64,000 bases of DNA from a virus (lineage: Duplodnaviria; Heunggongvirae; Uroviricota; Caudoviricetes), in the IMG/VR virus record IMGVR_UViG_2585427757_000006. One strand, 5' to 3'. The translations under genes and the position numbers were made by a program. The number at the start of each line of letters is the position of its first letter. Position 1 is the stretch's first letter. This document shows positions 39,233-52,290 of this stretch, piece by piece. A model generated the notes under the pieces. It was not told where the DNA came from. It saw only the letters and a program-made list of their open reading frames with translations, and did not search any database.

Positions 39233-39550
39233 TGGAGAGTTCCCTTTGCGTATATAATTATCGTCTGAAACAACTTGTTTTCTTATATGTGATATAGCCT
39301 AAATGCCTACGGCTGCGGTGTAAAGGTTAAATGGTAGGTTGTGATTAACAATTGGCAAACATAGCTTGTATTTGTCTGTTGAAAAAAGTAACAATGACCT
39401 CTATATTACAAGTACGGTGATATGCCGTACACAATTTGATAATGCACACGTAATGGGCTATAGCCTTTTAAAGTAATTTTTGAGTCGAAAACTCAGTTTG
39501 AACAGAGGAGATTGATGGCCTTCCTACATCACGGCCATCAGGAGGAATAC

Positions 39551-39820
39551 ATGTCAGCACTAAAAAAGCAGCGCATCGATTTGAGATTAACCGATGACGA
39601 TAAAAGCATCATCGAGGAAGCTGCCGCAATGTCTAACCAGAGCATTACTCAGTTTATGGTTAGCAGTGCATCTGAACGTGCCGTGAAAGTTATAGAGCAA
39701 CACCGTAGACTAGTTCTGAATGAAGAATCCTGGAATCTGGTTATGGACGCTATAAGCAATCCTCCGGCACCGAACGACAAGCTGAAACGAGCTGCTGATC
39801 GTCTGAAAAGCATGGAGTAG
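39551..39820 (+). CDS. TacA-like (DUF1778) ribbon-helix-helix antitoxin
   Basis: AGGAGG Shine-Dalgarno before the ATG at 39551; C-terminal NPPAPNDKL as in DUF1778 antitoxins; immediately upstream of a GNAT gene. Confidence 0.7.
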   Translation: MSALKKQRIDLRLTDDDKSIIEEAAAMSNQSITQFMVSSASERAVKVIEQHRRLVLNEESWNLVMDAISNPPAPNDKLKRAADRLKSME

Positions 39821-39827
39821 TTTACTC

Positions 39828-40349
39828 GTGGATAATATAAAGATAGAAATTTTCTCTGGAGAGAAAGATTATGATTTGAATGGTTTTGATTGCGGTGAAG
39901 AATCACTAAATGCCTTTTTAACCAACCACTTAAAAAGGCAGCATGAGGGAAAAATTCTTCGCGCTTATGTGCTTTGCACGAAAGAAGGCAGACCAAAAGT
40001 GTTAGGGTATTACACTTTGTCAGGTAGCTGCTTTGAAAAGGAGTCCTTACCTTCAAGAAGCCAGCAAAAGAAGGTACCTTATCGGAATGTTCCAAGTGTT
40101 ACTTTGGGTAGGCTGGCTTTGGACAAGTCCCTTCAAGGTCAAGGATTTGGCTCAATGCTTGTAACACATGCAATGCGCGTTGTGTACAATGCATCTCTTG
40201 CTGTAGGCATTCATGGACTTTTCGTTGAGGCGTTAAATGACAAAGCCAAGGCGTTTTATAAAAGTTTAGACTTTATCCAGCTGGTTGGTAACAACGAGCG
40301 TTCTTTGTTCTATCCTACAAAATCTATCGAAAAATTGTTCGAAGAATAA
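39828..40349 (+). CDS. GNAT-family acetyltransferase toxin (TacT/AtaT-like)
   Basis: Acetyl-CoA binding motif GRLALDKSLQGQGFGSMLV; 173 aa; GTG start 8 nt after antitoxin stop. Confidence 0.75.
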   Translation: MDNIKIEIFSGEKDYDLNGFDCGEESLNAFLTNHLKRQHEGKILRAYVLCTKEGRPKVLGYYTLSGSCFEKESLPSRSQQKKVPYRNVPSVTLGRLALDKSLQGQGFGSMLVTHAMRVVYNASLAVGIHGLFVEALNDKAKAFYKSLDFIQLVGNNERSLFYPTKSIEKLFEE

Positions 40350-40380: not shown

Positions 40381-40596
40381 TCACCAACCGCAAACTCTCT
40401 CTCCCATCGTATTGTGAAAAAGGATTTGGCGTTCGGTTTCTTCGGTCATCACATCATTATTGCTGATATAGATAGGCCCAGCTCCATCGCAGAACAATAC
40501 GCTGGCGGTTTGTGGTTTAATGACGCACCCACTTATCATACAACTCACGATGAACGGCAGAAGCATCTTTCTGACGTATTTTATTGCTCGTCTCAT
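40381..40596 (-). CDS. outer-membrane spanin lipoprotein (Rz1-like), overlapping the i-spanin gene in another frame
   Basis: Lipobox MISGC; ~80 bp overlap with the i-spanin ORF. Confidence 0.5.
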   Translation of the reverse strand: MRRAIKYVRKMLLPFIVSCMISGCVIKPQTASVLFCDGAGPIYISNNDVMTEETERQILFHNTMGERVCGW

Positions 40597-40768
40597 TCAC
40601 CACTTCCACTGTGCTTTGAAGTCGTTTTCTGTCTTCCTGTTTTGCCTTCTCTTCCATTGCTCGTCGCGCCGCATTCCCGCCCATCGTGTAAGCGCCGACA
40701 AGAACGAAAAGAACGGCAGCCAGCGTAATCAAAGCAACTTTTAGCTTTGTCATCAGGCTGCCTAGCAT
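40517..40768 (-). CDS. inner-membrane spanin (Rz-like)
   Basis: N-terminal TM helix ALITLAAVLFVLVGAY then charged coiled-coil region. Confidence 0.55.
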   Translation of the reverse strand: MLGSLMTKLKVALITLAAVLFVLVGAYTMGGNAARRAMEEKAKQEDRKRLQSTVEVVNETSNKIRQKDASAVHRELYDKWVRH

Positions 40769-40769
40769 A

Positions 40770-41489
40770 TTAGACCATCCCTTTCTGGTGTTTTCTTACC
40801 TGCGACCAGGCAATGAATCCGGCCACAACAATAGTGGCAATACCGAAGATGATGCGTACTGTATCCCCGCTAGAGATATGACCTTGTGCTTTATCCATAG
40901 CAGCGGAAACCTGCGGCATAACATCGGCCAGCTGCGCCAGACCAATACCTGCTGTAACAGTTGCGCCTGCGGTTTCTTTAGTTACAGGAACAGCCTTCAC
41001 GGTTTTCACCGGCTTAACAACGCCAGCTCGACGCAGACCTTCCTCAATAACTTCTGCCGCATACCAGGTGTTCAGCGTTTTTAGCGGACCTCGCCCATTC
41101 TCATGGCGAATGATTGCCTCAACCAAAGGTCGAAGAATGTCGTAATCATGCAGATCGATAATCATGTCTGCGGTTACACCAACGGCTTTAGACACCTCAT
41201 TAATGTAGGCGTCAGTATTGTTTTCATTCGGCGGTGCCCAACGTTCAATAACTTCACGAATGGTATCGATACTTGAGCCGTCTTTTGCGCGACGTTTGTC
41301 GTGGTAGGTAATTAGAGTCACCGCCAGCGCACGAATCCCCCAAACAGGGTCTTTAAACGTGCAAAAGCGCGGTTCGTCTGGATTCGCAACCAGACCTTGC
41401 CACGGTGATCCTTTATCAAGATTACCGGGGTTATTATTACGAATGCCTCTCGGAGTCTTCATCCTTGATCTCCTGTTATTGCAGTCCAC
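40770..41489 (-). CDS. putative endolysin / peptidoglycan hydrolase with a C-terminal hydrophobic segment
   Basis: Directly upstream of the spanin pair; N-terminal GIRNNNPGNL motif; C-terminal IIFGIATIVVAGFIAW. Confidence 0.4.
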   Translation of the reverse strand: MDCNNRRSRMKTPRGIRNNNPGNLDKGSPWQGLVANPDEPRFCTFKDPVWGIRALAVTLITYHDKRRAKDGSSIDTIREVIERWAPPNENNTDAYINEVSKAVGVTADMIIDLHDYDILRPLVEAIIRHENGRGPLKTLNTWYAAEVIEEGLRRAGVVKPVKTVKAVPVTKETAGATVTAGIGLAQLADVMPQVSAAMDKAQGHISSGDTVRIIFGIATIVVAGFIAWSQVRKHQKGMV

Positions 41490-41811
41490 TTTTTACGCCA
41501 TACGCGGCTAACCCCAAAAGCAGTGCGGTAATAATGAACGACGTTATTTTAGAAACAATGCCGCCAAAGAACCCACTTGAGATGGAATCTAACCGGTTAA
41601 GGAGTTTGTCCAGATTGGAGTGTTGAATACTATGTTGCGCCGGGGTCATATCACCAAAGTAGGTTTTCAGCTGATCATTGACCTCCTGGCCAATTTCTTC
41701 ACGTAGCTCTTTACCTAATTTGCCAACAACCTCCCGAGCAACGATCGCGGCAATACGCTCAACTTGCTCTGTTGTAACGCCCGCCATCTCGTTCGACATG
41801 TTTTCCTCCAT
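41476..41811 (-). CDS. putative holin or lysis-associated membrane protein (single C-terminal TM)
   Basis: First gene of the lysis cluster; C-terminal FFGGIVSKITSFIITALLLGLAAYGV. Confidence 0.3.
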   Translation of the reverse strand: MEENMSNEMAGVTTEQVERIAAIVAREVVGKLGKELREEIGQEVNDQLKTYFGDMTPAQHSIQHSNLDKLLNRLDSISSGFFGGIVSKITSFIITALLLGLAAYGVKSGLQ

Positions 41812-41880
41812 GAAAAGTCAAATCGGGATGGCGGATTTATATCACATTTCACCCTTTTGTTGTAGGTGTGTACTTACCTA

Positions 41881-42114
41881 TCATTCAGCATTGCAACCGA
41901 TTGATGAGAAAGCACCTACTCCAACCCATCGCCAGTTATAGATGCTACCCGCTTTGTATAAGGTATAGTCGTTCACTTTTTTAACAGCATATATGGGTAT
42001 GACTGTCTCCTGTCCACCAATGATAGCTTCACCATAACATATAGGTGTCGGCAATTTCTGGCAGCCAGTAAGAGAGAGAACAACAGCTATTGTTAGAAAT
42101 AATCTTTTCATCAT
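41881..42114 (-). CDS. small lipoprotein downstream of the tail-fibre genes (possible Llp/Cor-like exclusion lipoprotein)
   Basis: Signal peptide with lipobox LTGC; 77 aa. Confidence 0.45.
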   Translation of the reverse strand: MMKRLFLTIAVVLSLTGCQKLPTPICYGEAIIGGQETVIPIYAVKKVNDYTLYKAGSIYNWRWVGVGAFSSIGCNAE

Positions 42115-42121
42115 TTACTCA

Positions 42122-42730
42122 TCAGTTATACAGATTTCTATTTATTACCGGTACTCTGCCATTTACGCTAAAACTATGGCCGCCATTAAGTTGGTTTACG
42201 AATATCGAGCTAACAGTATTTCCATATGCCGCATATCCATAAACCATTGTCATGGCTCCGCCCGGTACTGGAACAGCGAACACATTCGCATATGTTGGGA
42301 TTATCGCTGGAGGGTAATCAAAAACATGCCCTCCAGAGCTGTTCCACTCCGTATTATTAAGAAAGGTAAATGAAAGTGGGATATTTGCCGTATTATAGAT
42401 TTCCCCCCCTTGTGCATTGAAAAAACTCATGCCCCAAGTTTCTTTTTTGGCTATACCTTTCGAAAATACGTATATCGTGGCACTAGAGTCGCTACCCTGA
42501 CCTCCGAAACTGTAAATCACCTGGTTGTTACGCACTATTCTGTTGGCTATTAATGAAACAGCTTTCGAATAGGCAACAAAAATAATCGGTGAACGATCTG
42601 GAGATATTTTGGTGTTAAACTCTGTCCCGCCGGACAAAGAAACAACCTGCTTTCTCTGAAAAACGATAGGAGACAAAGAAGGAGACATCCAGACCTTCCC
42701 GTCAGATCGATATATCTTGCTTCCGTACAT
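42122..42730 (-). CDS. tail-fibre-associated protein (202 aa)
   Basis: ORF track; follows the tail-fibre gene; Gly/Ser/Asn-rich. Confidence 0.4.
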   Translation of the reverse strand: MYGSKIYRSDGKVWMSPSLSPIVFQRKQVVSLSGGTEFNTKISPDRSPIIFVAYSKAVSLIANRIVRNNQVIYSFGGQGSDSSATIYVFSKGIAKKETWGMSFFNAQGGEIYNTANIPLSFTFLNNTEWNSSGGHVFDYPPAIIPTYANVFAVPVPGGAMTMVYGYAAYGNTVSSIFVNQLNGGHSFSVNGRVPVINRNLYN

Positions 42731-42984
42731 TATTTTTGAAAAACCAATATGTTTAAATTACCACTAGCTCCAGACCACGAAATGGTATTTCCAGAAACCG
42801 TAAGACTTGTGTACTTTCCATTGGTTACGTCCATTATGTAATAGTCGATTCCCAATCCCGCCTCAACCTCATATGTTCTACTTCCTGAACCAGAGGGAGT
42901 AAAATAATCGAGGTAATAAACAGGGGCCAACGCATTGACCATCTCCTGTCTTGATGGCGACCAAACCTGTGCACCATAGCTCAT
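42730..42984 (-). CDS. tail-fibre-associated protein (84 aa)
   Basis: ORF track; start overlaps neighbour. Confidence 0.4.
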   Translation of the reverse strand: MSYGAQVWSPSRQEMVNALAPVYYLDYFTPSGSGSRTYEVEAGLGIDYYIMDVTNGKYTSLTVSGNTISWSGASGNLNILVFQK

Positions 42985-43044
42985 AAATATATCCTTATAC
43001 TTTTAAGCAGGGGCTGGTTTAGCTCCAGCCCCGATTGAAGTTGT

Positions 43045-46000
43045 TTATTCTTTAGGTGAATTTAACTTCGTTTCAAGCTCCTCAACCCTTTTGGTCAATT
43101 GCTGAATATGATGAATGAGTGGTACAACCAAACGCTCATACATCACTCCTTCAGCGACCATACCATTTGAGGAAATATCTTCTGGAGAATCATTATTTGT
43201 TGGTTCACGCCAATGGACATATTGCGGGGCAATCTCACCAACCTCTTCAGCAATAAGGCCGTAATACCCCCAATCCTTTCGGTCACCTCGACAAATTGAA
43301 CGATACCAAACAGGTCTTAATGACAAAAGTTCATCAGCATATCGATCTTGTAATGTTTCAATATCCTTTTTATAGCGCCTTGAAGACGTTGAACGCCAAA
43401 CTGTATTGATACCTGGGTTTGGATCAATGTACATATTGGCACCGCTAGTAGTTGTGCCAATATCCCATATAGCAAACCCTCCACTACCGCCTGATTTGAC
43501 AACCAGTGTTTCAGCAACAATATCCAGGTTGCCACTATAGCCTGTCAGTGATGATCTGCTTGCATAGGAGCTTAGAAGGTTTGCTACCTCTGTTTTCGTG
43601 TAAGCATTAAGGTTAGCCGCAGTCAAAGTTATATCGGCAGAGCCATCAAACGCCACACCAGCAATTTTCCTTGCTGTCTGCAATTTTGTGGCGGTTGCGG
43701 CATTACCAGTAGTGTTCTGATTACCAGTTGTATTCACACCAGGGATTGAATCCTTAGCGGTATATACCTGCGCCCACGCTGACCATGCTGCACCTGTGTT
43801 ATCTCTTCGTGAGCGAATGAAAACTGGCGCATGTGCACCGCTCGTACCACTCCAGCCAATAAGCAACTCGCCCTCACCAGCAGCACTCGCACCTTTCATG
43901 TGCAATACGTTGCCATACGTGGTCGGGTAGCTATTGTTGTACGCCTCATACATTTGAATGCCAGCAGTGCCTTGAGTAGAGCCGCTTAACGCCGTAACTC
44001 GGCCACGAGATACCAATGTATTAATGTTGATATCGCCTGAACCATCAAACTTAACACCATTGATGTTTCTCGCTGTTTGCAACTTCGTAGCTGTTGAAGC
44101 ATTACCGTTCAAACTACCATTTACGCCACCAGTCACATTTAGTCCATTACCAATTGATACAGCACCGCTGGTATTATTAATTGTAATCGGTCGCAAACCG
44201 TTCCATGAACCTAATGTGTCTCCTGATGCTGTTAGCAGGAAATATGTGTTCGCCCCATCATTACGGATAAAGAACCCATAGTTACCGTAAGCAATGCGGA
44301 AACCATTTGCATATTTTGAAACGATCTCACCAGAAGACGTTACCCCCCCAGATAATGTGCCACCTGAAAGCGGTAATGCTCCTACATCAGAAGCTGTTGG
44401 TTTGTTTCTGGTGTTATAAGAACGACGCCAGCCTGGCGCATAATCACTTCCATTGTACACATAAATAAATTCCGCATTATTAACACCACCATGACCCGAT
44501 GTTGTTGTCGTTGTAACACGAATAGTGTAATGGCTTGTTGCCTTATTACTAAACACCTCAATCACGGAACCAGATAGATCGATCCTACCGCAACCAGTGT
44601 CGTCTATATAATTATTGTTGGCGTAAGCCCATGAGCACCGTGCAATCCAATATTTGTTTGAAAATGCACCCTGATTATTTAGCCACGTTATAAACTGAGC
44701 AGTCGTAAATGCTGTTCCGTTACCACTATTTAACCATCCGGCGGCAGCGGTTGGTGCGTTTATATCAGCCGGCTGAGGCATAAATCCAGTCGTGTAAACC
44801 TGCTCCCAACCACTTTCAAAACCATAGCCATCTCTTGAGGAACGGTAGAACAGACCACCATTTTTATAGTGAGCTTTAATTTGAAGCGTACGGCAACTAC
44901 CTACACCGGTATAAAAGTTGGCAAGAATATAACTAGCGCCTGCTCTAGTTACATTGTAAGCACCAGATTCAGCATTCCACGGCACGCCACCATCAGCATC
45001 CGCATATGTATCCGTTGCCCTTCTGGCAAAAGCAGCCACATGCGCGGCGGTTAAAGTGATATCTTTGGAACCATCAAACTCAACACCAGAAACCCGTCTT
45101 GGCGTTTGCAGCTTTGTTGCTGTTAATGCATTACCGTTCAGACTTGCGGACAGTTTGGTTCCAATAACCAGTTCGCCGGTTGCGTTATCAATAGCAAACG
45201 GTCTTAATGTATTCCAGCCACCATAAACATCACCTTGATTGGTAAGCAGCAGGTAAGTTTTAGCGCCATCATTACGCCATAATGCCCCATACTCCCCACC
45301 TATCATTCGAATCTGATTACCACCACGCGCTACAATTTCGTCTGTGGCAAAAAGTTTTTTGCACGACAAGTTATCGTTAACGATTAACGAATGAGACTCA
45401 TAAAAACCACGCCCACTCTTAAAATCAAGGATAACGTCCGCCGCGATACATTCAATCGCCGGATTTGTTGCCCCAAACTTATAGGTCGTATCATTAACAA
45501 CGAGATCCGCACCAGGTGCGGATATTGACAGGCCATCTTCAATAAACGCAAAAACAGGGAAAGCAGCACCATCAACATAGAACACAGAGCGCAAATCATC
45601 GCCCTTATTACTCATCATTATTGAGTGGATGGCTCGTTCATTGTTTTGATATTGCCAGAACATTCCATAAGCATAACGCCCCCTGTCAGTCCAGCCACCA
45701 GGCATAACAAATCCGTTAAACTCGCAGTTATTCATCGGATCGCCTGCGGTTCGCGTTGCCGTGGTGATAATGACCCTTGATGCCAGTTCGCTTACTGAGC
45801 CAGCAGAACGCATAACAACAACAGGGTAATATTTTCCAGATGTTGCACCTGCAGGAGCGTTAACCCGCACATAACGCATACCACGCTTATCAGCAAAGTC
45901 TGTTTTACTGACCGCGTTAATGTTGTTCAGGAAGCGTCCCTTATCGGGTATATCAGCGCCGTTCTGGTCTTTCTGCAGACGTTTCTCTGCATTGTCATAG

Positions 46001-47466
46001 GCTGATTTTACTGCCTTTGGCGTTGCCGCCAGCGTCTCAGACGTACTGTTGGTCGCACTGCTGAGCTGTACTATCCCCTTTTTCGTCGTACTTGCATCCT
46101 CAAGCGCCACGGCGGATGCAATATCCTCTGCCCGTTTTGCCGCTGTCTCGGCGCGCGTTGCCGCGGATTCCGCCGTACTTTTGCTCTGTGCTGCCGCCGT
46201 CGCACTGCCAGCTGCCTCTGTCGCCTTCGTGGATGCTGTCGTGGCGCTGCCCTTCGCTGCGGACGCTTGTCTGGTCGCCTCATCTTTTGAAGCAGACGCC
46301 GATGATGCCGATGACGCTGCCGAACTGGCGGACGATGCGGCTGCCGTTTTTGAGGATTCTGCACGGGTTTCCGACGCTTTCGCGTTCGTTTCGGATGTCT
46401 TCGCTGCGGAAGCAGACCTCGCTGCTGCGCTGGCCTGTTCAGTGGCTTCGCCAGCCTTCGTTGTGGCTGTTGAAGCAGACGATGCGGCACTTTCTGCCGA
46501 TTTTCCGGCGGCGGTGGCACTGGCTGAGGCCTGCCCGGCACTTGTTGACGCGGCACTTGCAGACGACGCAGCCGCTGTTTTTGAGCCTGCCGCAGCCGAG
46601 GCGCTCTGTCCCGCTGCCGTTTCAGAAGACCTGGCGTTCGTCTCGGACGTTTTTGCCGCCTTCGCGGAATTTCCTGCCGCCGTTGCCGAGGAAGCGGCAT
46701 TACTGGCGCTCGAGGCTGCGTTCGTTTCTGATGATTTCGCTGCCTCTTTTGAGGCCGCCGCATCCCGGGCTGAGGTGGCAGCTTCTGACGCCTTCGTGGT
46801 CGCGGTGGATGCAGAAGTGGCTGCAGATTTTTGTGACGCTGCAGCATTCGTTTCAGATTTTTTCGCAGCAGTTGCACTCGCACTTGCGGCACTTTGTGAG
46901 GATGCCGCAGCGGATGCACTTTGAGACGCTTGAGAGGCTTTTTCTCCAGCGGCATTGGCGCTTTTTGCTGCTGCGGCAGCACTGGCCGCCGCCTCACGAG
47001 CTTTGTCGCCAGCAGCATCAATCGCGTCAGTGTTATTTTTATACCACTCAACGTTTTCGTTGTGCTCGTTGACGATCTGCATTAGCGGCTTAACGGTCAC
47101 TTCTGTACCGTCTTCACGCTCGATTGTCACCTCATCCAGCGCAGTCAACCAACTGCGTATGGACTTGGAATCAGCCGACATACGCGACATTAGCGCAGTA
47201 AAACGCGCGCTAAACTGTGTTAAGTCGCCTTCATAGGTCGTAATGATTCGGCACGGAACCTCAGACTGAGTTTCGCCGGTATAAGGTTCTGAGAGAACAA
47301 TATTCGTATCGCTTATTACGCGCTTGATCTCATACAGCTTATTGTCGGGGCCAATGACGATCATCCCCGGCAACACACCATTAGCTGTTACGTTCCAGGC
47401 TGTCCCTGCCCCAACCAGAGTATTGCTACCATGTGTAAATGTGATAGTACCTTCCCTGTACCACAT
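43045..47466 (-). CDS. long tail fibre protein (1473 aa) with Ala/Ser-rich repeat region, three tail-fibre repeat units and a C-terminal self-cleaving chaperone (peptidase S74-like) domain
   Basis: ~320-aa low-complexity SETNA-type repeats; three ...TATKLQT.R...GV.FDGS.DI... units; C-terminal SSRRYKKDI and YYGLIAEEVGEIAPQYV. Confidence 0.85.
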   Translation of the reverse strand: MWYREGTITFTHGSNTLVGAGTAWNVTANGVLPGMIVIGPDNKLYEIKRVISDTNIVLSEPYTGETQSEVPCRIITTYEGDLTQFSARFTALMSRMSADSKSIRSWLTALDEVTIEREDGTEVTVKPLMQIVNEHNENVEWYKNNTDAIDAAGDKAREAAASAAAAAKSANAAGEKASQASQSASAAASSQSAASASATAAKKSETNAAASQKSAATSASTATTKASEAATSARDAAASKEAAKSSETNAASSASNAASSATAAGNSAKAAKTSETNARSSETAAGQSASAAAGSKTAAASSASAASTSAGQASASATAAGKSAESAASSASTATTKAGEATEQASAAARSASAAKTSETNAKASETRAESSKTAAASSASSAASSASSASASKDEATRQASAAKGSATTASTKATEAAGSATAAAQSKSTAESAATRAETAAKRAEDIASAVALEDASTTKKGIVQLSSATNSTSETLAATPKAVKSAYDNAEKRLQKDQNGADIPDKGRFLNNINAVSKTDFADKRGMRYVRVNAPAGATSGKYYPVVVMRSAGSVSELASRVIITTATRTAGDPMNNCEFNGFVMPGGWTDRGRYAYGMFWQYQNNERAIHSIMMSNKGDDLRSVFYVDGAAFPVFAFIEDGLSISAPGADLVVNDTTYKFGATNPAIECIAADVILDFKSGRGFYESHSLIVNDNLSCKKLFATDEIVARGGNQIRMIGGEYGALWRNDGAKTYLLLTNQGDVYGGWNTLRPFAIDNATGELVIGTKLSASLNGNALTATKLQTPRRVSGVEFDGSKDITLTAAHVAAFARRATDTYADADGGVPWNAESGAYNVTRAGASYILANFYTGVGSCRTLQIKAHYKNGGLFYRSSRDGYGFESGWEQVYTTGFMPQPADINAPTAAAGWLNSGNGTAFTTAQFITWLNNQGAFSNKYWIARCSWAYANNNYIDDTGCGRIDLSGSVIEVFSNKATSHYTIRVTTTTTSGHGGVNNAEFIYVYNGSDYAPGWRRSYNTRNKPTASDVGALPLSGGTLSGGVTSSGEIVSKYANGFRIAYGNYGFFIRNDGANTYFLLTASGDTLGSWNGLRPITINNTSGAVSIGNGLNVTGGVNGSLNGNASTATKLQTARNINGVKFDGSGDININTLVSRGRVTALSGSTQGTAGIQMYEAYNNSYPTTYGNVLHMKGASAAGEGELLIGWSGTSGAHAPVFIRSRRDNTGAAWSAWAQVYTAKDSIPGVNTTGNQNTTGNAATATKLQTARKIAGVAFDGSADITLTAANLNAYTKTEVANLLSSYASRSSLTGYSGNLDIVAETLVVKSGGSGGFAIWDIGTTTSGANMYIDPNPGINTVWRSTSSRRYKKDIETLQDRYADELLSLRPVWYRSICRGDRKDWGYYGLIAEEVGEIAPQYVHWREPTNNDSPEDISSNGMVAEGVMYERLVVPLIHHIQQLTKRVEELETKLNSPKE

Positions 47467-47559: not shown

Positions 47560-50500
47560 TCACAGACGGCCAATTCTTACTCGTAGGACGTTGTTATCGT
47601 CATAAACGTCAATCCGCTGACCATTTATAACCAATCGCCCATTGCCGCCGCTATTACCGTTGATCTCCAGCGTTCCATTTTTGCCGAACCGCCATCCAGA
47701 TCTACCGCTAACAAAATTGGTAGATTGCAGATCGCCTACTTTTGCATTGGTGATTGTGCCATCCTTGATATACGCTCCATTCATATAGGCGATACTGTTT
47801 TCGATAACAAATGGCGTTGTGATCTTCCCGTTAACAGAGTTGACCAAACCAAACCTGTCCGCCTGAACCAAAAACTGAGATAGCCCAGTGGTGTCAATAC
47901 CAAGCGCAATACCGGCAACATACTTCTGCCCTCCGCTCGTTGAAGTCTCCATTTTCAACGTCCACGCGGTTGACACTTTTTTGTTGGTATCAGCAATAGC
48001 TGTTGCCTGCTGTTGAATTGTCGCGGTATTTCCATTCACCTCTGCTTTCAGAGTATCGATTCGCCCACTCAGAGCATTATCTGCCTGCGTTCTCGCTTTC
48101 GTTTCAGTTGTGACCGCCGCGGAAATGTTGGCTGCCGTTTGAGACTCTAAGTTTGTGATTTGAGTCGCCAATGCAGCATCTTGCTCTGTACGCGTTTTCG
48201 TTTCGGTTGCTACAGCCGCTTTAATATCCTCTTTGTATTGAGAGGTCAGCTTGGTGATCTGAGACGACAACGCCGAGTCAGCATCAGTTCGAGCCTGCGT
48301 TTCAACTGCAACGGCCGCACTAATATCTTTCGCTGTCTGTGCTTTTAAACTTGAAACCTCTTTTGTTAAAGCGGTATCACCATCTGCACGAGCCGTTGTT
48401 TCTCTGGCAAGAGACGCCTTGAGATCATTAGCTTTTGCTGTAAGAGACGTAATCTGGGTAGACAATGCACTATCGGCATCAGTCCTTGCTTTTGTCTCTA
48501 CAGCAACCGCTGCGGCAATATCAGTTCCGGTTTGTGCTCGCAGGCTGTTAATTTCTCGTGAGAGCGCCTGGTCAGCACTTGCTCTGGCCTCCTGCTCCTG
48601 AGTGATGGCAGCGGATATATCACCGTCAACCTTTGACTGAAGCTGGTTTATTTGTTTGGCTAACGCAGAGTCCCCGCTTGCTCGGGCCTCCTGCTCACTA
48701 CGTATTGCAGCAGAAATATCATCATCAACCTTTGCCTGAAGTTGGGTGATCTGGCTTGCCAGAGCCGAATCTTCCGTTACTCGGGCTTCTTGCTCTTCCT
48801 TAATAGCTGCGACGATATCGTTGCTTACTTTCGACTCAAGCTGAGTGATCTGTGTCGTCAGAGCTTCATCGGCAGATGTACGAGCCTCCTGCTCTGTACT
48901 AATCGCCGCGCTGATATCTCCTTCAAACTTAGATTGCAGCTGAGTGACACGCTTTGCCAACGCTTCATCGCCATCGGCACGAGCGGTGGACTCTTCCAGA
49001 ATACTGGCCTTAATGTCTTCGCCAATTTCTACGCGAATTTCCTCAACCTTCGTGGCCATTGCAGACATATCATCAGCAAAGGTTTTCTGTGTTGTTGCGA
49101 TCTTCGCGTTATTGACCATCTGCTTGTGCTGGTCTTCATCTTGACGAAGAGCCAGGTCAATATTTGTTTTGGCCAAAGCCTCAATGTTCGTAGTCAGTTC
49201 TGCACTGGCACGATCGACCTCTGCAACCGTCTTTTTCATTTCTTCAACGGCAGCGGAGCTTTCCTCTACCGTTGACTGCAACACTTCCAGTTGTTTAGCG
49301 TTTGCAGCATCCCCTTCAACACGAGCCTCGCTTTCCTTAGCAATAAGAGCCGCCGCTTCGTCTCTTGCAGCCTTTATTGCCTCGACTGTATTAGCGAGAG
49401 CTTTATCGTGTTCAGATACGGTGTTTTCGATTTCAACAATTGCAGCATCAGTAGCATCAATTTTTTCAAACGCTTCATTGACCTTGTCGATCGTTGCCGA
49501 AACCTCACCTTTAAGCTCGGTTTGTGCGTTCTCCAAAGCATCGCTACGCTCGTTGAATTTTATTTCAAAACCCGCGAGGTTATCGCTGAACTGCTTATCT
49601 AATTCAGCTATATCTTCCTTAACGTCGTTTACCGACCCCTCCAAAGATTCGACGCTCTGGTTGATATGCTCATTTAACTCGTCAACTGCTTCTTGAGAGA
49701 CTTTGCTGTTGATGTCCTCAAGCAGAGCCTGACCAAGCTCGGAAGATGTAATTTTGCCAGTCAGGAACGACAGTACATCGCGAGTTGTCGCCTCTGTTCC
49801 CAAGTTTGAGTTCGGAGGACTTAACATACCTCGCTTGTTCGATGCTCGAACCCAGTAATACCACGTTTCGCTATCCCCAAGACCAGCATGTGTAAAGGTG
49901 GTGCTTGCAGACTCTGCGATCAGTTTCGCCGTATCCAGATTGTTGGTCTGGGATGCGTAAACATTAATGTGATCAAGGTCTACCGAATCTGGATTAACCC
50001 AATTCAGTATCACATTACGATAGTCTCCAACGGCCGTTAATGACGTTGGGGCATCTGGCGGTGTCATTGTGCCCAACACCTGATAAACGGTACTGATAAT
50101 CTCTGTTTTTTTACCGTTGAATGAAACCGCATACAGCTGGAAGTCGTAGCGTCCATTCTCCGCGACATTAACGATTTCGTATTGCTCTTCGGTTACACGC
50201 GCCGATTGCCAGTTCGATACATTGTTTTCATCAGAACGTCGCCAACTGATCCAATACTCTGGAGATTTCCCTTCCCATGTTGCAGTCAGTTTTACTGACA
50301 GGTTGCCCGGGCTTGAGAGGTAAGTCCCTTCAGTGATTTGCAAATTAGACGGCTTGGAGTAAGTCGGGTCCAATACCGTCGTATTCTGCGGGATAAGCGT
50401 TGCACCATTGTCGATCGCCTCATATTTAGACGGATTGTTTTCAACAGCGGTGATGTCAAAGCTACCCGACGTTTCCCCCTGAGCGATGTTAACGATGCGA

Positions 50501-52290
50501 ACGCGCATAGGTTCGAGATCTGGTTCTGTAATTGTCCAGACACCGTTCAAAACAGGCGTTTCCGCTGACGACAGGGCTTTTGAAAACGTAACCTTTGTTA
50601 TGTTTTCGCCAGTTTCAAGAACATCGCGCTCAACGATTTTGCCTTCCTGATTCAATATCCGAATAAAGCTGCCGCTTTTAGCTAACGACACAGGCGCATC
50701 GAGAGTGATGCTGTTTTTGGTAAACTCCACAATTCGACCGGAGTTACGTTTACCTGCACGATATTTGTTCTGAATCAGAACGGTTTCACCAGGCATCAGA
50801 AATGAGGCGTCTAAGCCGGCAGTAAATGTAATTACATCCGACTCCATTCTGGCGGTATACAAAAGCCACAAACCAACTCGGTGAGCCTGGCCTCGGCTTG
50901 TACATCCAAATGCTACGACTTCTGTTTTACGCTCACCATAACGGCGCATTGCGTCCTGATCTTCAACGTATTCGATGTTTTGCTTATAACCGTCCTCCTT
51001 GTTGTTGTAGGTTACGAGCGCAACGGATGGGCGATCTTTACGCGCAGAACCTTTATAGGTAAACAGTCCATCTTTGACGTTGGAGTTGGTAAACATCATT
51101 ACCGGATCTGATGGGCTATCCTGCATGATGTTAACCATGCCACCAGCCCAAAACACCATGCCGCGGAATGCACCGGCAATATCCTGAATTAATCGGTATG
51201 CGTCTTGTCGACTGGTGATCTGCGTATTGATTGCAAAGCGTTTCTCTTTACCCCCAAAGCCATCATCGACCTCTTCGTCACAATATCGACCAATCTGGTA
51301 GAGCTGGCCGAGGTCAATCATGGATTCCGACACAAATTGCCCAAGACCATACCGAGTATTGGTAAGCAAATCGTAGAGAATCCACGCAGGGTTTGAAGAA
51401 GACAACAGCTTAAAAGTACCGTCCCATACGCCGACATAAGTATTGGTGTATTCGTTGTAGTTTGACGGTACTCGGATTTTGATACCGCGCACCAAATACG
51501 AACGGGAAGGCATTGTGCTACCAAACTGCTCTGAATTGACCTTCAAGCCAACAAGAGCAGAGTTAGGGTAGTTCATTGGCGTGTCGACAATCTCACCGAT
51601 GGAATCAACCCATGTGTCGTTGTAGAGGTACTGGCTACTATTATCATCTGTAAGACGAATCACCCTAACCTTGTATGCACGACCAGGCTTAGGCAGTTTC
51701 AGCTCATAGCTACGGTAATACACGCCGGTTTTCTTTGCCGTTAGCGTGATATCAACGCTTTTCTCACCTTCTGCCACTACATCAGAAAATGTTGCGTCTG
51801 CGTTGGCGATCTGGAATTTGTACTTCACCGTAGTGTCATTTGTATCGCCAGAGCTTTTATCAACGCTACGTAAAGAGGGGAATTTCATGATGACACGAAC
51901 GCGATCAGCTTCATCGTTATCGATTGAAACCGTAACGTCGTGGGTTTTTTTAAGGTGAATATTTACGGACTTAGGCGTTTCAACAAAATCAAAACCAGCC
52001 ATTGGCGTCTGGTCTTGTGAGCCGTCACGAAAATCCCATGTAATACCGCTGAAGTTGGAAGAGCCATCTTCATTCAAGATCGGTAAATCGTCGATGAAGA
52101 TCGACTTTGCGCCATTTACCAGGCCACCGATAACCCCCTCGCCAAGAAGGTCGAGGATGGCTGCCATAGCACGAGAATTGACAGTATCATCAGCTTCAAC
52201 CGGGGTACGGCTGGAGCTTTTACTTTTCTTGCCACCAGCACCGGCAATAAGAAGCGGTAATTTTTTCTTCTTGAACTGTTCCATGTCCAA
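47560..52290 (-). CDS. lambda J-like central tail fibre / host-specificity protein (1576 aa) with a long coiled-coil repeat array
   Basis: AFGCTSRGQAHRVGLWLLYT and FLTGKITSSELGQALLE align with lambda J as recalled; ~15 tandem ~25-aa repeats; J-like C-terminal block. Confidence 0.9.
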   Translation of the reverse strand: MDMEQFKKKKLPLLIAGAGGKKSKSSSRTPVEADDTVNSRAMAAILDLLGEGVIGGLVNGAKSIFIDDLPILNEDGSSNFSGITWDFRDGSQDQTPMAGFDFVETPKSVNIHLKKTHDVTVSIDNDEADRVRVIMKFPSLRSVDKSSGDTNDTTVKYKFQIANADATFSDVVAEGEKSVDITLTAKKTGVYYRSYELKLPKPGRAYKVRVIRLTDDNSSQYLYNDTWVDSIGEIVDTPMNYPNSALVGLKVNSEQFGSTMPSRSYLVRGIKIRVPSNYNEYTNTYVGVWDGTFKLLSSSNPAWILYDLLTNTRYGLGQFVSESMIDLGQLYQIGRYCDEEVDDGFGGKEKRFAINTQITSRQDAYRLIQDIAGAFRGMVFWAGGMVNIMQDSPSDPVMMFTNSNVKDGLFTYKGSARKDRPSVALVTYNNKEDGYKQNIEYVEDQDAMRRYGERKTEVVAFGCTSRGQAHRVGLWLLYTARMESDVITFTAGLDASFLMPGETVLIQNKYRAGKRNSGRIVEFTKNSITLDAPVSLAKSGSFIRILNQEGKIVERDVLETGENITKVTFSKALSSAETPVLNGVWTITEPDLEPMRVRIVNIAQGETSGSFDITAVENNPSKYEAIDNGATLIPQNTTVLDPTYSKPSNLQITEGTYLSSPGNLSVKLTATWEGKSPEYWISWRRSDENNVSNWQSARVTEEQYEIVNVAENGRYDFQLYAVSFNGKKTEIISTVYQVLGTMTPPDAPTSLTAVGDYRNVILNWVNPDSVDLDHINVYASQTNNLDTAKLIAESASTTFTHAGLGDSETWYYWVRASNKRGMLSPPNSNLGTEATTRDVLSFLTGKITSSELGQALLEDINSKVSQEAVDELNEHINQSVESLEGSVNDVKEDIAELDKQFSDNLAGFEIKFNERSDALENAQTELKGEVSATIDKVNEAFEKIDATDAAIVEIENTVSEHDKALANTVEAIKAARDEAAALIAKESEARVEGDAANAKQLEVLQSTVEESSAAVEEMKKTVAEVDRASAELTTNIEALAKTNIDLALRQDEDQHKQMVNNAKIATTQKTFADDMSAMATKVEEIRVEIGEDIKASILEESTARADGDEALAKRVTQLQSKFEGDISAAISTEQEARTSADEALTTQITQLESKVSNDIVAAIKEEQEARVTEDSALASQITQLQAKVDDDISAAIRSEQEARASGDSALAKQINQLQSKVDGDISAAITQEQEARASADQALSREINSLRAQTGTDIAAAVAVETKARTDADSALSTQITSLTAKANDLKASLARETTARADGDTALTKEVSSLKAQTAKDISAAVAVETQARTDADSALSSQITKLTSQYKEDIKAAVATETKTRTEQDAALATQITNLESQTAANISAAVTTETKARTQADNALSGRIDTLKAEVNGNTATIQQQATAIADTNKKVSTAWTLKMETSTSGGQKYVAGIALGIDTTGLSQFLVQADRFGLVNSVNGKITTPFVIENSIAYMNGAYIKDGTITNAKVGDLQSTNFVSGRSGWRFGKNGTLEINGNSGGNGRLVINGQRIDVYDDNNVLRVRIGRL

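Follow-up and report, generated by a model that had tools for sequence, protein, structure and literature searches.

A Cor-encoding gene trio of an SSU5-like phage-plasmid as a probable host-recognition and self-exclusion cassette

Introduction

The three genes considered here lie at positions 41881-42984 of a 64,000-nucleotide stretch of DNA, called the window throughout, from the Caudoviricetes record IMGVR_UViG_2585427757_000006, and they encode, from upstream to downstream, the products of the open reading frames (ORFs) ORF84 and ORF202 and the lipoprotein Cor. Their best described counterpart is the gp22-gp23-cor trio of phi80, which corresponds to gp22-gp23-cor of N15 and gp25-gp26-cor of HK022 and is also found in T1 and ES18. 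According to PMC13164509, which cites Wietzorrek 2006 on this point, the trio follows the tail genes in T1, HK022, N15, ES18 and phi80, all of them FhuA-dependent phages. The same three families appear in the same order in phi80 and in the window, in proteins of similar size (100, 224 and 77 amino acids in phi80 against 84, 202 and 77 in the window), and in both cases the trio stands downstream of the tail-tip genes, in a genome whose central tail-tip protein J has a C-terminus of the same type. The two loci differ in arrangement, divergence and type of element. In phi80 and HK022 the order is J, small gene, large gene, cor and then the fibre gene, whereas in the window and in Salmonella phage SSU5 a lateral fibre gene separates J from the cassette. 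The first two proteins are 18-29% identical between the window and phi80, and Cor 42-43%. The phi80-type host element is a lambdoid prophage, while that of the window is a phage-plasmid of ~110 kb. SSU5 has the same genome type as the window and carries an orthologous cassette (SSU5_023, SSU5_024 and SSU5_025) at the same position before the holin gene, with 68%, 75% and 57-59% identity, respectively. It differs in that the cassette is preceded by SSU5_022, a separate gene for a fibre adhesin, whereas the fibre of the window ends in an S74 chaperone domain.

Two other systems show a comparable division of labour with different proteins. Like the window, T5 encodes a small outer-membrane lipoprotein, Llp, so that a separate receptor-binding protein (RBP), pb5, is accompanied by a blocker of the cognate receptor. 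Llp shows no detectable sequence similarity to the window Cor. Furthermore, pb5 is one large protein, and no chain of the Protein Data Bank (PDB), pb5 included, significantly matched ORF84 or ORF202 by sequence or ORF202 by fold. In small siphophages, the LptDE-targeting Rtp44/Rtp45 genes and the Oekolampad RBP/superinfection exclusion locus also consist of a separate RBP gene followed by an exclusion lipoprotein gene downstream of a J-like protein (PMC8594841, PMC12685063), but that RBP is a single protein of ~309 amino acids from a different family, and both the receptor and the blocking mechanism differ. ORF202 had no structural match to the Rtp44/Oekolampad RBP in a PDB copy extending to April 2026, the corresponding entries having been deposited in June 2025 (PMC12685063). 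At a more general level, Maffei et al. proposed that loci of this kind downstream of gpJ constitute bona fide RBP loci together with their cognate exclusion genes (PMC8594841).

The window is 99.9% identical to non-mobilizable Escherichia coli plasmids of ~110 kb such as pECAZ162_2, and its kin include SSU5 and the E. coli phage-plasmid Cyrano (pLF82); it is an SSU5-like phage-plasmid. Because the same three-gene cassette is found in phi80, N15, HK022, T1 and SSU5, the finding presented here is real but already known, and the cor gene, the cassette and its logic have been annotated and published before. The three genes are probably best explained as a host-recognition and self-exclusion cassette of this element. 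To that picture the present comparison makes modest additions, namely a terminal motif shared among J proteins, the existence of alternative loci, and a layout of ORF202 with a conserved N-terminal and a variable C-terminal part, all of which favour a receptor-binding role for ORF84 and ORF202.

The cassette and its lipoprotein, a member of the Cor family

The genes on which the argument rests are the following, the last three taken from the ORF listing and from direct reading of the sequence.

47560-52290, minus strand: J-like central tail-tip gene, 1576 amino acids
43045-47466, minus strand: lateral tail fibre gene, 1473 amino acids, with Gp34_trimer and Peptidase_S74 domains
42730-42984, minus strand: ORF84, 84 amino acids
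42122-42730, minus strand: ORF202, 202 amino acids
41881-42114, minus strand: cor, lipoprotein of 77 amino acids

On the minus strand the tape measure gene is followed by homologues of lambda M, L, K and I, the J-like tail tip and the lateral fibre, and then by ORF84, ORF202, cor, a holin-like protein, the endolysin, Rz and Rz1; past Rz1 the listed order ends with a toxin-antitoxin pair and ParA. The three ORFs were found exactly where an earlier note on this DNA had placed them, after the tail fibre gene, from which ORF84 is separated by a 60-nucleotide spacer. The stop codon of ORF84 overlaps the start of ORF202 in the sequence TAATG, and 7 nucleotides lie between ORF202 and cor.

The lipoprotein begins with MMKRLFLTIAVVLSLTGC and contains, as the earlier note had said, the lipobox L-T-G-C, whose cysteine is Cys18. 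Cleavage of the signal peptide would occur between MMKRLFLTIAVVLSLTG and this cysteine, leaving a mature protein of ~60 residues with Gln, and not Asp, at position +2. According to the sorting rule for E. coli lipoproteins, Gln instead of Asp at +2 directs the protein to the outer membrane; therefore, outer-membrane sorting is predicted. The Pfam lipoprotein profile LPAM_1 gave only a weak match (16.6 bits, under the cutoff of 20), and assignment to the Cor family comes from dedicated models: the NCBIfam equivalog NF047972 (lamb_exclu_cor) scored 80.1 bits against a cutoff of 31 and covered model positions 1-77 of 78, and the PHROG Cor family phrog_1119 matched with an E-value of 7.8e-30. Identity amounts to 57-59% with SSU5_025 (annotated as Cor-like since 2012), 47-49% with HK022 Cor and 42-43% with phi80 Cor. 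The conserved NWRW motif is retained, as are the residues Cys18, Cys26, Cys74, Tyr53, Arg62-Trp63 and Phe69, which are invariant in an alignment of seven sequences; in an alignment of 97 sequences the same residues are at least 90% conserved, except for Arg62, which is not among the listed conserved columns. By these sequence criteria the 77-residue lipoprotein is a member of the Cor family, known for blocking the outer-membrane receptor of the phage that encodes it, so that the suggestion of an Llp- or Cor-like lipoprotein made in the earlier note, originally a guess from context, holds at the family level. RefSeq calls the protein of the near-identical E. coli plasmids "cor: phage exclusion lipoprotein Cor", and of 5426 complete E. 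coli genomes examined 74 have the cassette, in every case on a plasmid. The true start of cor may be the second ATG, at 42111.

The comparison with T5 extends to the predicted structure. An AlphaFold2 model of Cor built with 97 homologues is confident (predicted local distance difference test, pLDDT, 87), and its closest fold is that of T5 Llp, a small beta-barrel lipoprotein, with a template modelling (TM) score of 0.60 when normalised to Llp; the Foldseek E-value of this pairing is non-significant. A phmmer search of Cor against all PDB chains, including the Llp entries 8A60 and 7QJF, returned no match at E <= 10. On the model, the window Cor is predicted to have an Llp-like fold. It has been reported that models of other Cor proteins share the Llp fold and that Cor inactivates FhuA (PMC13164509; bioRxiv 10.64898/2026.03.26.714494), and the latter source cites exclusion of FhuA-dependent phages together with FhuA inactivation for the Cor proteins of phi80, N15, HK022, mEp167 and T1 only. 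Cor homologues also occur in Stx-type podophages, where a protein 58% identical to the window Cor is encoded directly after the tail fibre adhesin gene (phi315, L013:2762-2989; POCJ13, L008:2986-3213).

ORF84 and ORF202 as members of two established families with no export signals

ORF84 falls in phrog_557 (E 2.4e-24) and ORF202 in phrog_425 (E 3.4e-48), both as full-length profile matches, and the three ORFs are thus considered real and not chance frames because established phage families were matched with E-values from 2e-24 to 3e-48. In the same two families phi80 gp22 and gp23 score 2.4e-36 and 1.6e-80, respectively, and SSU5_023/024 and SECphi27 gp73/gp72 are also found. HK022 gp25 and gp26 occupy equivalent gene positions and align with ORF84 and ORF202, the phi80 annotation equates the genes from J to cor with N15 gp21-gp23 and Cor, and the N15 homologues are gp22 (ORF84) and gp23 (ORF202). 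Pfam yielded sub-threshold noise only, PDB sequence searches with ORF84, ORF202 and Cor retrieved nothing meaningful, and neither ORF84 nor ORF202 matched a Tfa or gp38-type adhesin family in Pfam, PHROGs or NCBIfam; phrog_1121, to which the SSU5 adhesin SSU5_022 was assigned, is a different family.

Neither protein has a signal peptide, a lipobox, a transmembrane or hydrophobic segment, or a cysteine, and both N-termini are polar; the maximum Kyte-Doolittle hydropathy over 19 residues is 0.54 for ORF84 and 1.38 for ORF202. The database names of phrog_557 and phrog_425 (outer-membrane and membrane-associated protein) were set aside, given that no signal peptide, lipobox or transmembrane segment is present. 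The same feature bears on the function assumed for the pair by the authors of the KanT1 paper, who regarded these proteins as taking part in exclusion (PMC13164509). Under that explanation, ORF84 and ORF202 would be non-virion accessory factors that help Cor in superinfection exclusion, which agrees with the location of the pair immediately upstream of cor in the window, phi80, HK022, N15, T1 and SSU5 (PMC13164509). A helper acting in the envelope is nonetheless hard to reconcile with two proteins that lack export signals.

The organization of ORF202 points in another direction. The AlphaFold2 model of this protein is of moderate quality (pLDDT 60); a beta-sandwich spanning residues 20-125 is predicted with confidence, residues 128-191 only poorly. 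A HMMER search in 1.84 billion representative sequences retrieved 187 cluster representatives of the family, nearly all of them stand-alone proteins of ~200-240 amino acids, and 27 of the 150 remote relatives listed from this set match profile positions 1 to ~128 only. This boundary coincides with that of confidence in the model and with the two halves seen in the comparison with SSU5, where the N-terminal domain is 81% and the C-terminal domain 66% identical. ORF202 thus consists of a conserved N-terminal domain and a swappable or variable C-terminal domain. RBPs are usually built in this way, with a conserved part for attachment and a distal part that varies.

In RefSeq and in the SSU5 record the larger protein is annotated with 188 amino acids, starting at Met15. 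However, family members share the first 14 residues of ORF202 (42689-42730), and the ATG further upstream overlaps the stop codon of the gene before it; therefore, the 202-residue form is the likely product. ORF84 and ORF202 may be related to each other as well. An hhalign comparison placed the profile of the ORF84 family on the N-terminal half of that of the ORF202 family (probability 69%, E 4.5e-5), and the motif [YW]G-x2-[IVF]-[WYF]-x3-G occurs three times, at residues 3-13 of ORF84 and at residues 2-12 and 99-109 of ORF202, which suggests paralogy between the two genes. BLAST of one protein directly against the other was negative, the relationship being seen by profile comparison only, and no further paralogues were found elsewhere in the window.

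The C-terminus of J and the presence of the pair

The link between the pair and the central tail tip was drawn from the last part of J.

47563-48162, minus strand: C-terminal ~200 amino acids of J, ending in ...LVINGQRIDVYDDNNVLRVRIGRL

This region is 38-40% identical (E ~1e-36) to the C-termini of the J proteins of phi80, HK022, SECphi27 and JenP1 and more distantly related to that of Zar3M (29% identity, E 1e-20), and all five of these phages carry the pair. Similarity between the window J and lambda J ends at lambda residue 931, and the C-terminal domain of ~200 residues of the lambda protein has no counterpart in the window. That domain is the LamB-binding region of lambda J. Over the last 24 residues of the window J (LVINGQRIDVYDDNNVLRVRIGRL), identity is 62% with the C-terminal end of a fibre protein of 422 amino acids from the Stx-type podophage phi315 (L013:4934-6202), which is encoded directly upstream of the pair in that phage. 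An ending of the type VxDxNxLRVxIGRL, located within the last ~25 residues (47563-47640 in the window), is common to the pair-carrying siphoviruses and the phi315 fibre protein and is absent from lambda J. From these sequence patterns, the J C-terminus may act as a docking platform for ORF84 and ORF202, which are best read as putative RBPs of the central tail tip and not of the lateral fibre.

Alternative loci and distribution of the pair

The small-then-large gene order beside tail-tip genes is found in the window, SSU5, phi80, HK022, SECphi27, JenP1, Zar3M and phi315. Exceptions to this adjacency are second-locus copies in Cyrano and in PhiR41_1, for which no describing paper was found in the literature. 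In Cyrano, whose J is 97% identical to that of the window, the fibre gene is followed directly by the holin gene with no cassette, and a pair ~80% identical to the JenP1 proteins, CYRAN_88/89 (L014:3717-4615), lies between CYRAN_87 (a gene for 189 amino acids) and a DUF4942 gene. PhiR41_1 carries a JenP1-like pair at the second locus (L011:3714-4615), again with no cor. In both elements this locus is ~55 kb away from the tail-adjacent site and the fibre genes, and in the window-type plasmid pECAZ162_2 the same locus is an empty spacer of 142 nucleotides (L015:9119-9261). The absence of the cassette from Cyrano might be taken as evidence against an essential role, but this argument is rejected in view of the second-locus pair found there.

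In PLSDB, 241 plasmids carry the pair in a total of 252 copies, distributed into window-type (~69), SSU5-type (~57) and JenP1-like (~115) classes, and ~95% of these plasmids hold a single pair even where its location differs. The cor gene is present in 145 PLSDB plasmids, counts that match the window-type and SSU5-type classes and thus leave the JenP1-like class devoid of Cor. In SSU5-like plasmids Cor accompanies the pair only at the tail-adjacent locus, and the examined phage genomes contain one pair per record. A few plasmids hold pairs at both loci. In phi315 the gp22/gp23-type pair (L013:6217-7118) is located ~3.5 kb beyond cor, just before lom, and is therefore not adjacent to cor, while the available stretch of POCJ13 ends before the point at which phi315 has its pair.

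This distribution is difficult to accommodate if the pair merely assists Cor. Pairs with no detectable Cor are found in ~115 plasmids, Cyrano, PhiR41_1 and JenP1, Stx-type podophages have Cor with no pair beside it, and the number of pairs stays at about one despite the moved location. An element that holds on to roughly one pair, regardless of its site and of the presence of Cor, is more easily explained by a virion function that is required than by help in exclusion, and the helper role is considered improbable.

It had also been suggested, in the earlier note, that the two proteins form the distal tip of the lateral fibre or assist in its assembly. The pair follows the lateral fibre genes directly in the window and in SSU5, and the Gly/Ser-rich composition invoked in support of this idea, which is typical of many fibre proteins, proved to be moderate (Gly plus Ser 23.8% in ORF84 and 21.8% in ORF202). 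Yet the pair comes after J and before the side fibre gene in phi80 and HK022, it is ~55 kb from any fibre gene in Cyrano and PhiR41_1, and it matches no tail-fibre assembly or adhesin family in Pfam, PHROGs or NCBIfam. In addition, the fibre ends of SSU5 and the window are unrelated, SSU5 having a separate adhesin and the window an S74 chaperone domain, and nevertheless their larger proteins are 75% and their smaller ones 68% identical. What stands of this suggestion is the host-recognition character of the pair; the connection is with the central J and not with the lateral fibre, as indicated by the shared motif, the position after J in phi80, HK022 and N15, and the distance from the fibre in Cyrano. 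A role in assembly found no backing, as nothing indicates a chaperone function and the lateral fibre is itself equipped with an intramolecular chaperone domain at its C-terminus, Peptidase_S74. Altogether, fibre-tip or fibre-assembly proteins appear slightly less probable still than exclusion helpers.

A more specific proposal on the receptor-binding role is put forward tentatively, with somewhat less than even confidence. It states that ORF84 and ORF202 form a two-protein receptor-binding cap that docks on the J C-terminal motif of ~25 residues (V-x-D-x-N-x-L-R-V-x-I-G-R-L), and that for SSU5-like phage-plasmids the presence of one such pair, at one or the other of two loci, would be the means of changing receptor, with only the tail-adjacent version being associated with a cognate Cor.

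Proposed mechanism and identity of the receptor

In the mechanism that we infer for the cassette, ORF84 and ORF202 would be made in the cytoplasm from overlapping, translationally coupled genes and would join the virion where the central tail-tip protein J ends. This J has no receptor-binding domain of the lambda type, and a short conserved motif forms its terminus. Attachment to J would involve ORF84 and the N-terminal, conserved domain of ORF202, leaving the variable C-terminal domain of ORF202 to bind a host outer-membrane protein, most probably the TonB-dependent transporter FhuA. Cor would in turn bind the periplasmic face of the same receptor and render it unusable, as T5 Llp does with FhuA. 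As a consequence, carrier or infected cells, as well as lysis debris, would stop adsorbing this phage and others that use the same receptor. The receptor-binding part of this scheme is favoured by the shared terminal motif of J, the alternative loci, the N-conserved/C-variable architecture, the approximately single copy per genome and the absence of export signals.

Several points weigh against it. A Foldseek search of ORF202 against the same PDB copy gave no significant match, and neither a solved nor a predicted structure was found to resemble this protein, a failure also reported by the KanT1 authors (PMC13164509); because the model is moderate and no significant match exists, no fold-based function can be claimed for this protein. 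None of the 187 cluster representatives is fused to a J-like protein. At the level of distribution, ~11 plasmids carry two pairs, and ~140 SSU5-like plasmids have no pair at the sensitivity of the search. A scan of 41300-43300 provided no promoter that would explain cor expression in the plasmid state. In the literature, no experiments or virion proteomics on members of the pair families were found, no protein receptor has been reported for SSU5, and PMC12312913, citing Kim 2014, describes SSU5 as using the lipopolysaccharide core via the fibre adhesin gp22. Finally, the closest lytic-phage relatives of ORF202 (~30% identity) belong to the warwickviruses, a group reported to be independent of FhuA (PMC10373560).

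This last relationship is what makes the receptor uncertain. FhuA is probably the target, but the cassette could work as proposed on another TonB-dependent transporter or outer-membrane protein, for instance BtuB or YncD, a serious alternative despite being the less likely one. Besides the warwickvirus relatives, BtuB-dependent phages also possess Cor-like lipoproteins (PMC13164509), and the window Cor is only 41-49% identical to the Cor proteins studied experimentally. On the other side, the window Cor scores far above the NCBIfam equivalog cutoff and aligns over its full length with FhuA-type Cor, whereas pairwise BLAST against the warwickvirus lipoprotein aligned nothing beyond the signal peptide; moreover, the complete trio has so far been reported in FhuA-dependent phages only (PMC13164509).

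If the proposed mechanism is correct, carriers of the plasmid-prophage are predicted to be resistant to phages that use the same receptor, probably the FhuA users T1, T5 and phi80, and they may show altered FhuA-dependent uptake. Among the cassette carriers in E. coli are relatives of the clinical plasmid pECOH89. The gp22/gp23-like pair, which has a wide distribution but no name, has been interpreted in two ways, as a set of receptor-binding proteins and as a helper in exclusion. Window-type and Cyrano-type plasmids constitute a natural experiment in this regard, as they combine near-identical J proteins with different pairs at different loci.

Edges of the cassette and neighbouring features

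Two features were found at the borders of the cassette.

43010-43032, minus strand: G+C-rich hairpin with an 8-bp stem, between the stop codon of the lateral fibre gene and ORF84
41812-41880, minus strand: conserved spacer between cor and the holin gene, containing TGaTATAAA

The hairpin alone has a free energy of -17.3 kcal/mol (centroid structure), and the stretch of 66 nucleotides around it reaches a minimum free energy of -18.4 kcal/mol (z = -3.3 against shuffled sequences). No U-run follows the stem and the terminator scan did not call it; for lack of a U-run it does not qualify as a canonical terminator. Its position corresponds to the upstream edge of the cassette. The downstream edge is the conserved spacer, the cor stop codon being the exact limit of the variable region. 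This spacer is identical in the window and in the Cyrano tail locus, which has no cassette, and largely conserved in SSU5, and no significant RNA structure was found in it. Its TGaTATAAA sequence is similar to an extended -10 element, and the lysis genes may be transcribed from it. In a scan for promoters and terminators over 41300-43300, promoter-like sites were less frequent than chance would predict and no terminator stood out convincingly.

Further downstream, the spanin-family genes Rz1 (40381-40596) and Rz (40517-40768) overlap by 80 nucleotides in different frames, and Rz1 is a second lipoprotein in the neighbourhood, distinct from Cor. Between the lysis genes and parA, a toxin-antitoxin pair is encoded on the plus strand, composed of an antitoxin-like protein of 102 amino acids (39512-39820) and a protein of 173 amino acids (39828-40349), in the same position as the Cyrano genes annotated as a putative antitoxin and a KacT acetyltransferase toxin. 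Within the lateral fibre gene, several ORFs of 291-326 amino acids were detected on both strands of an Ala/Ser-rich repeat region (46049-47072), and these look like by-products of the biased repeat sequence and not genes.

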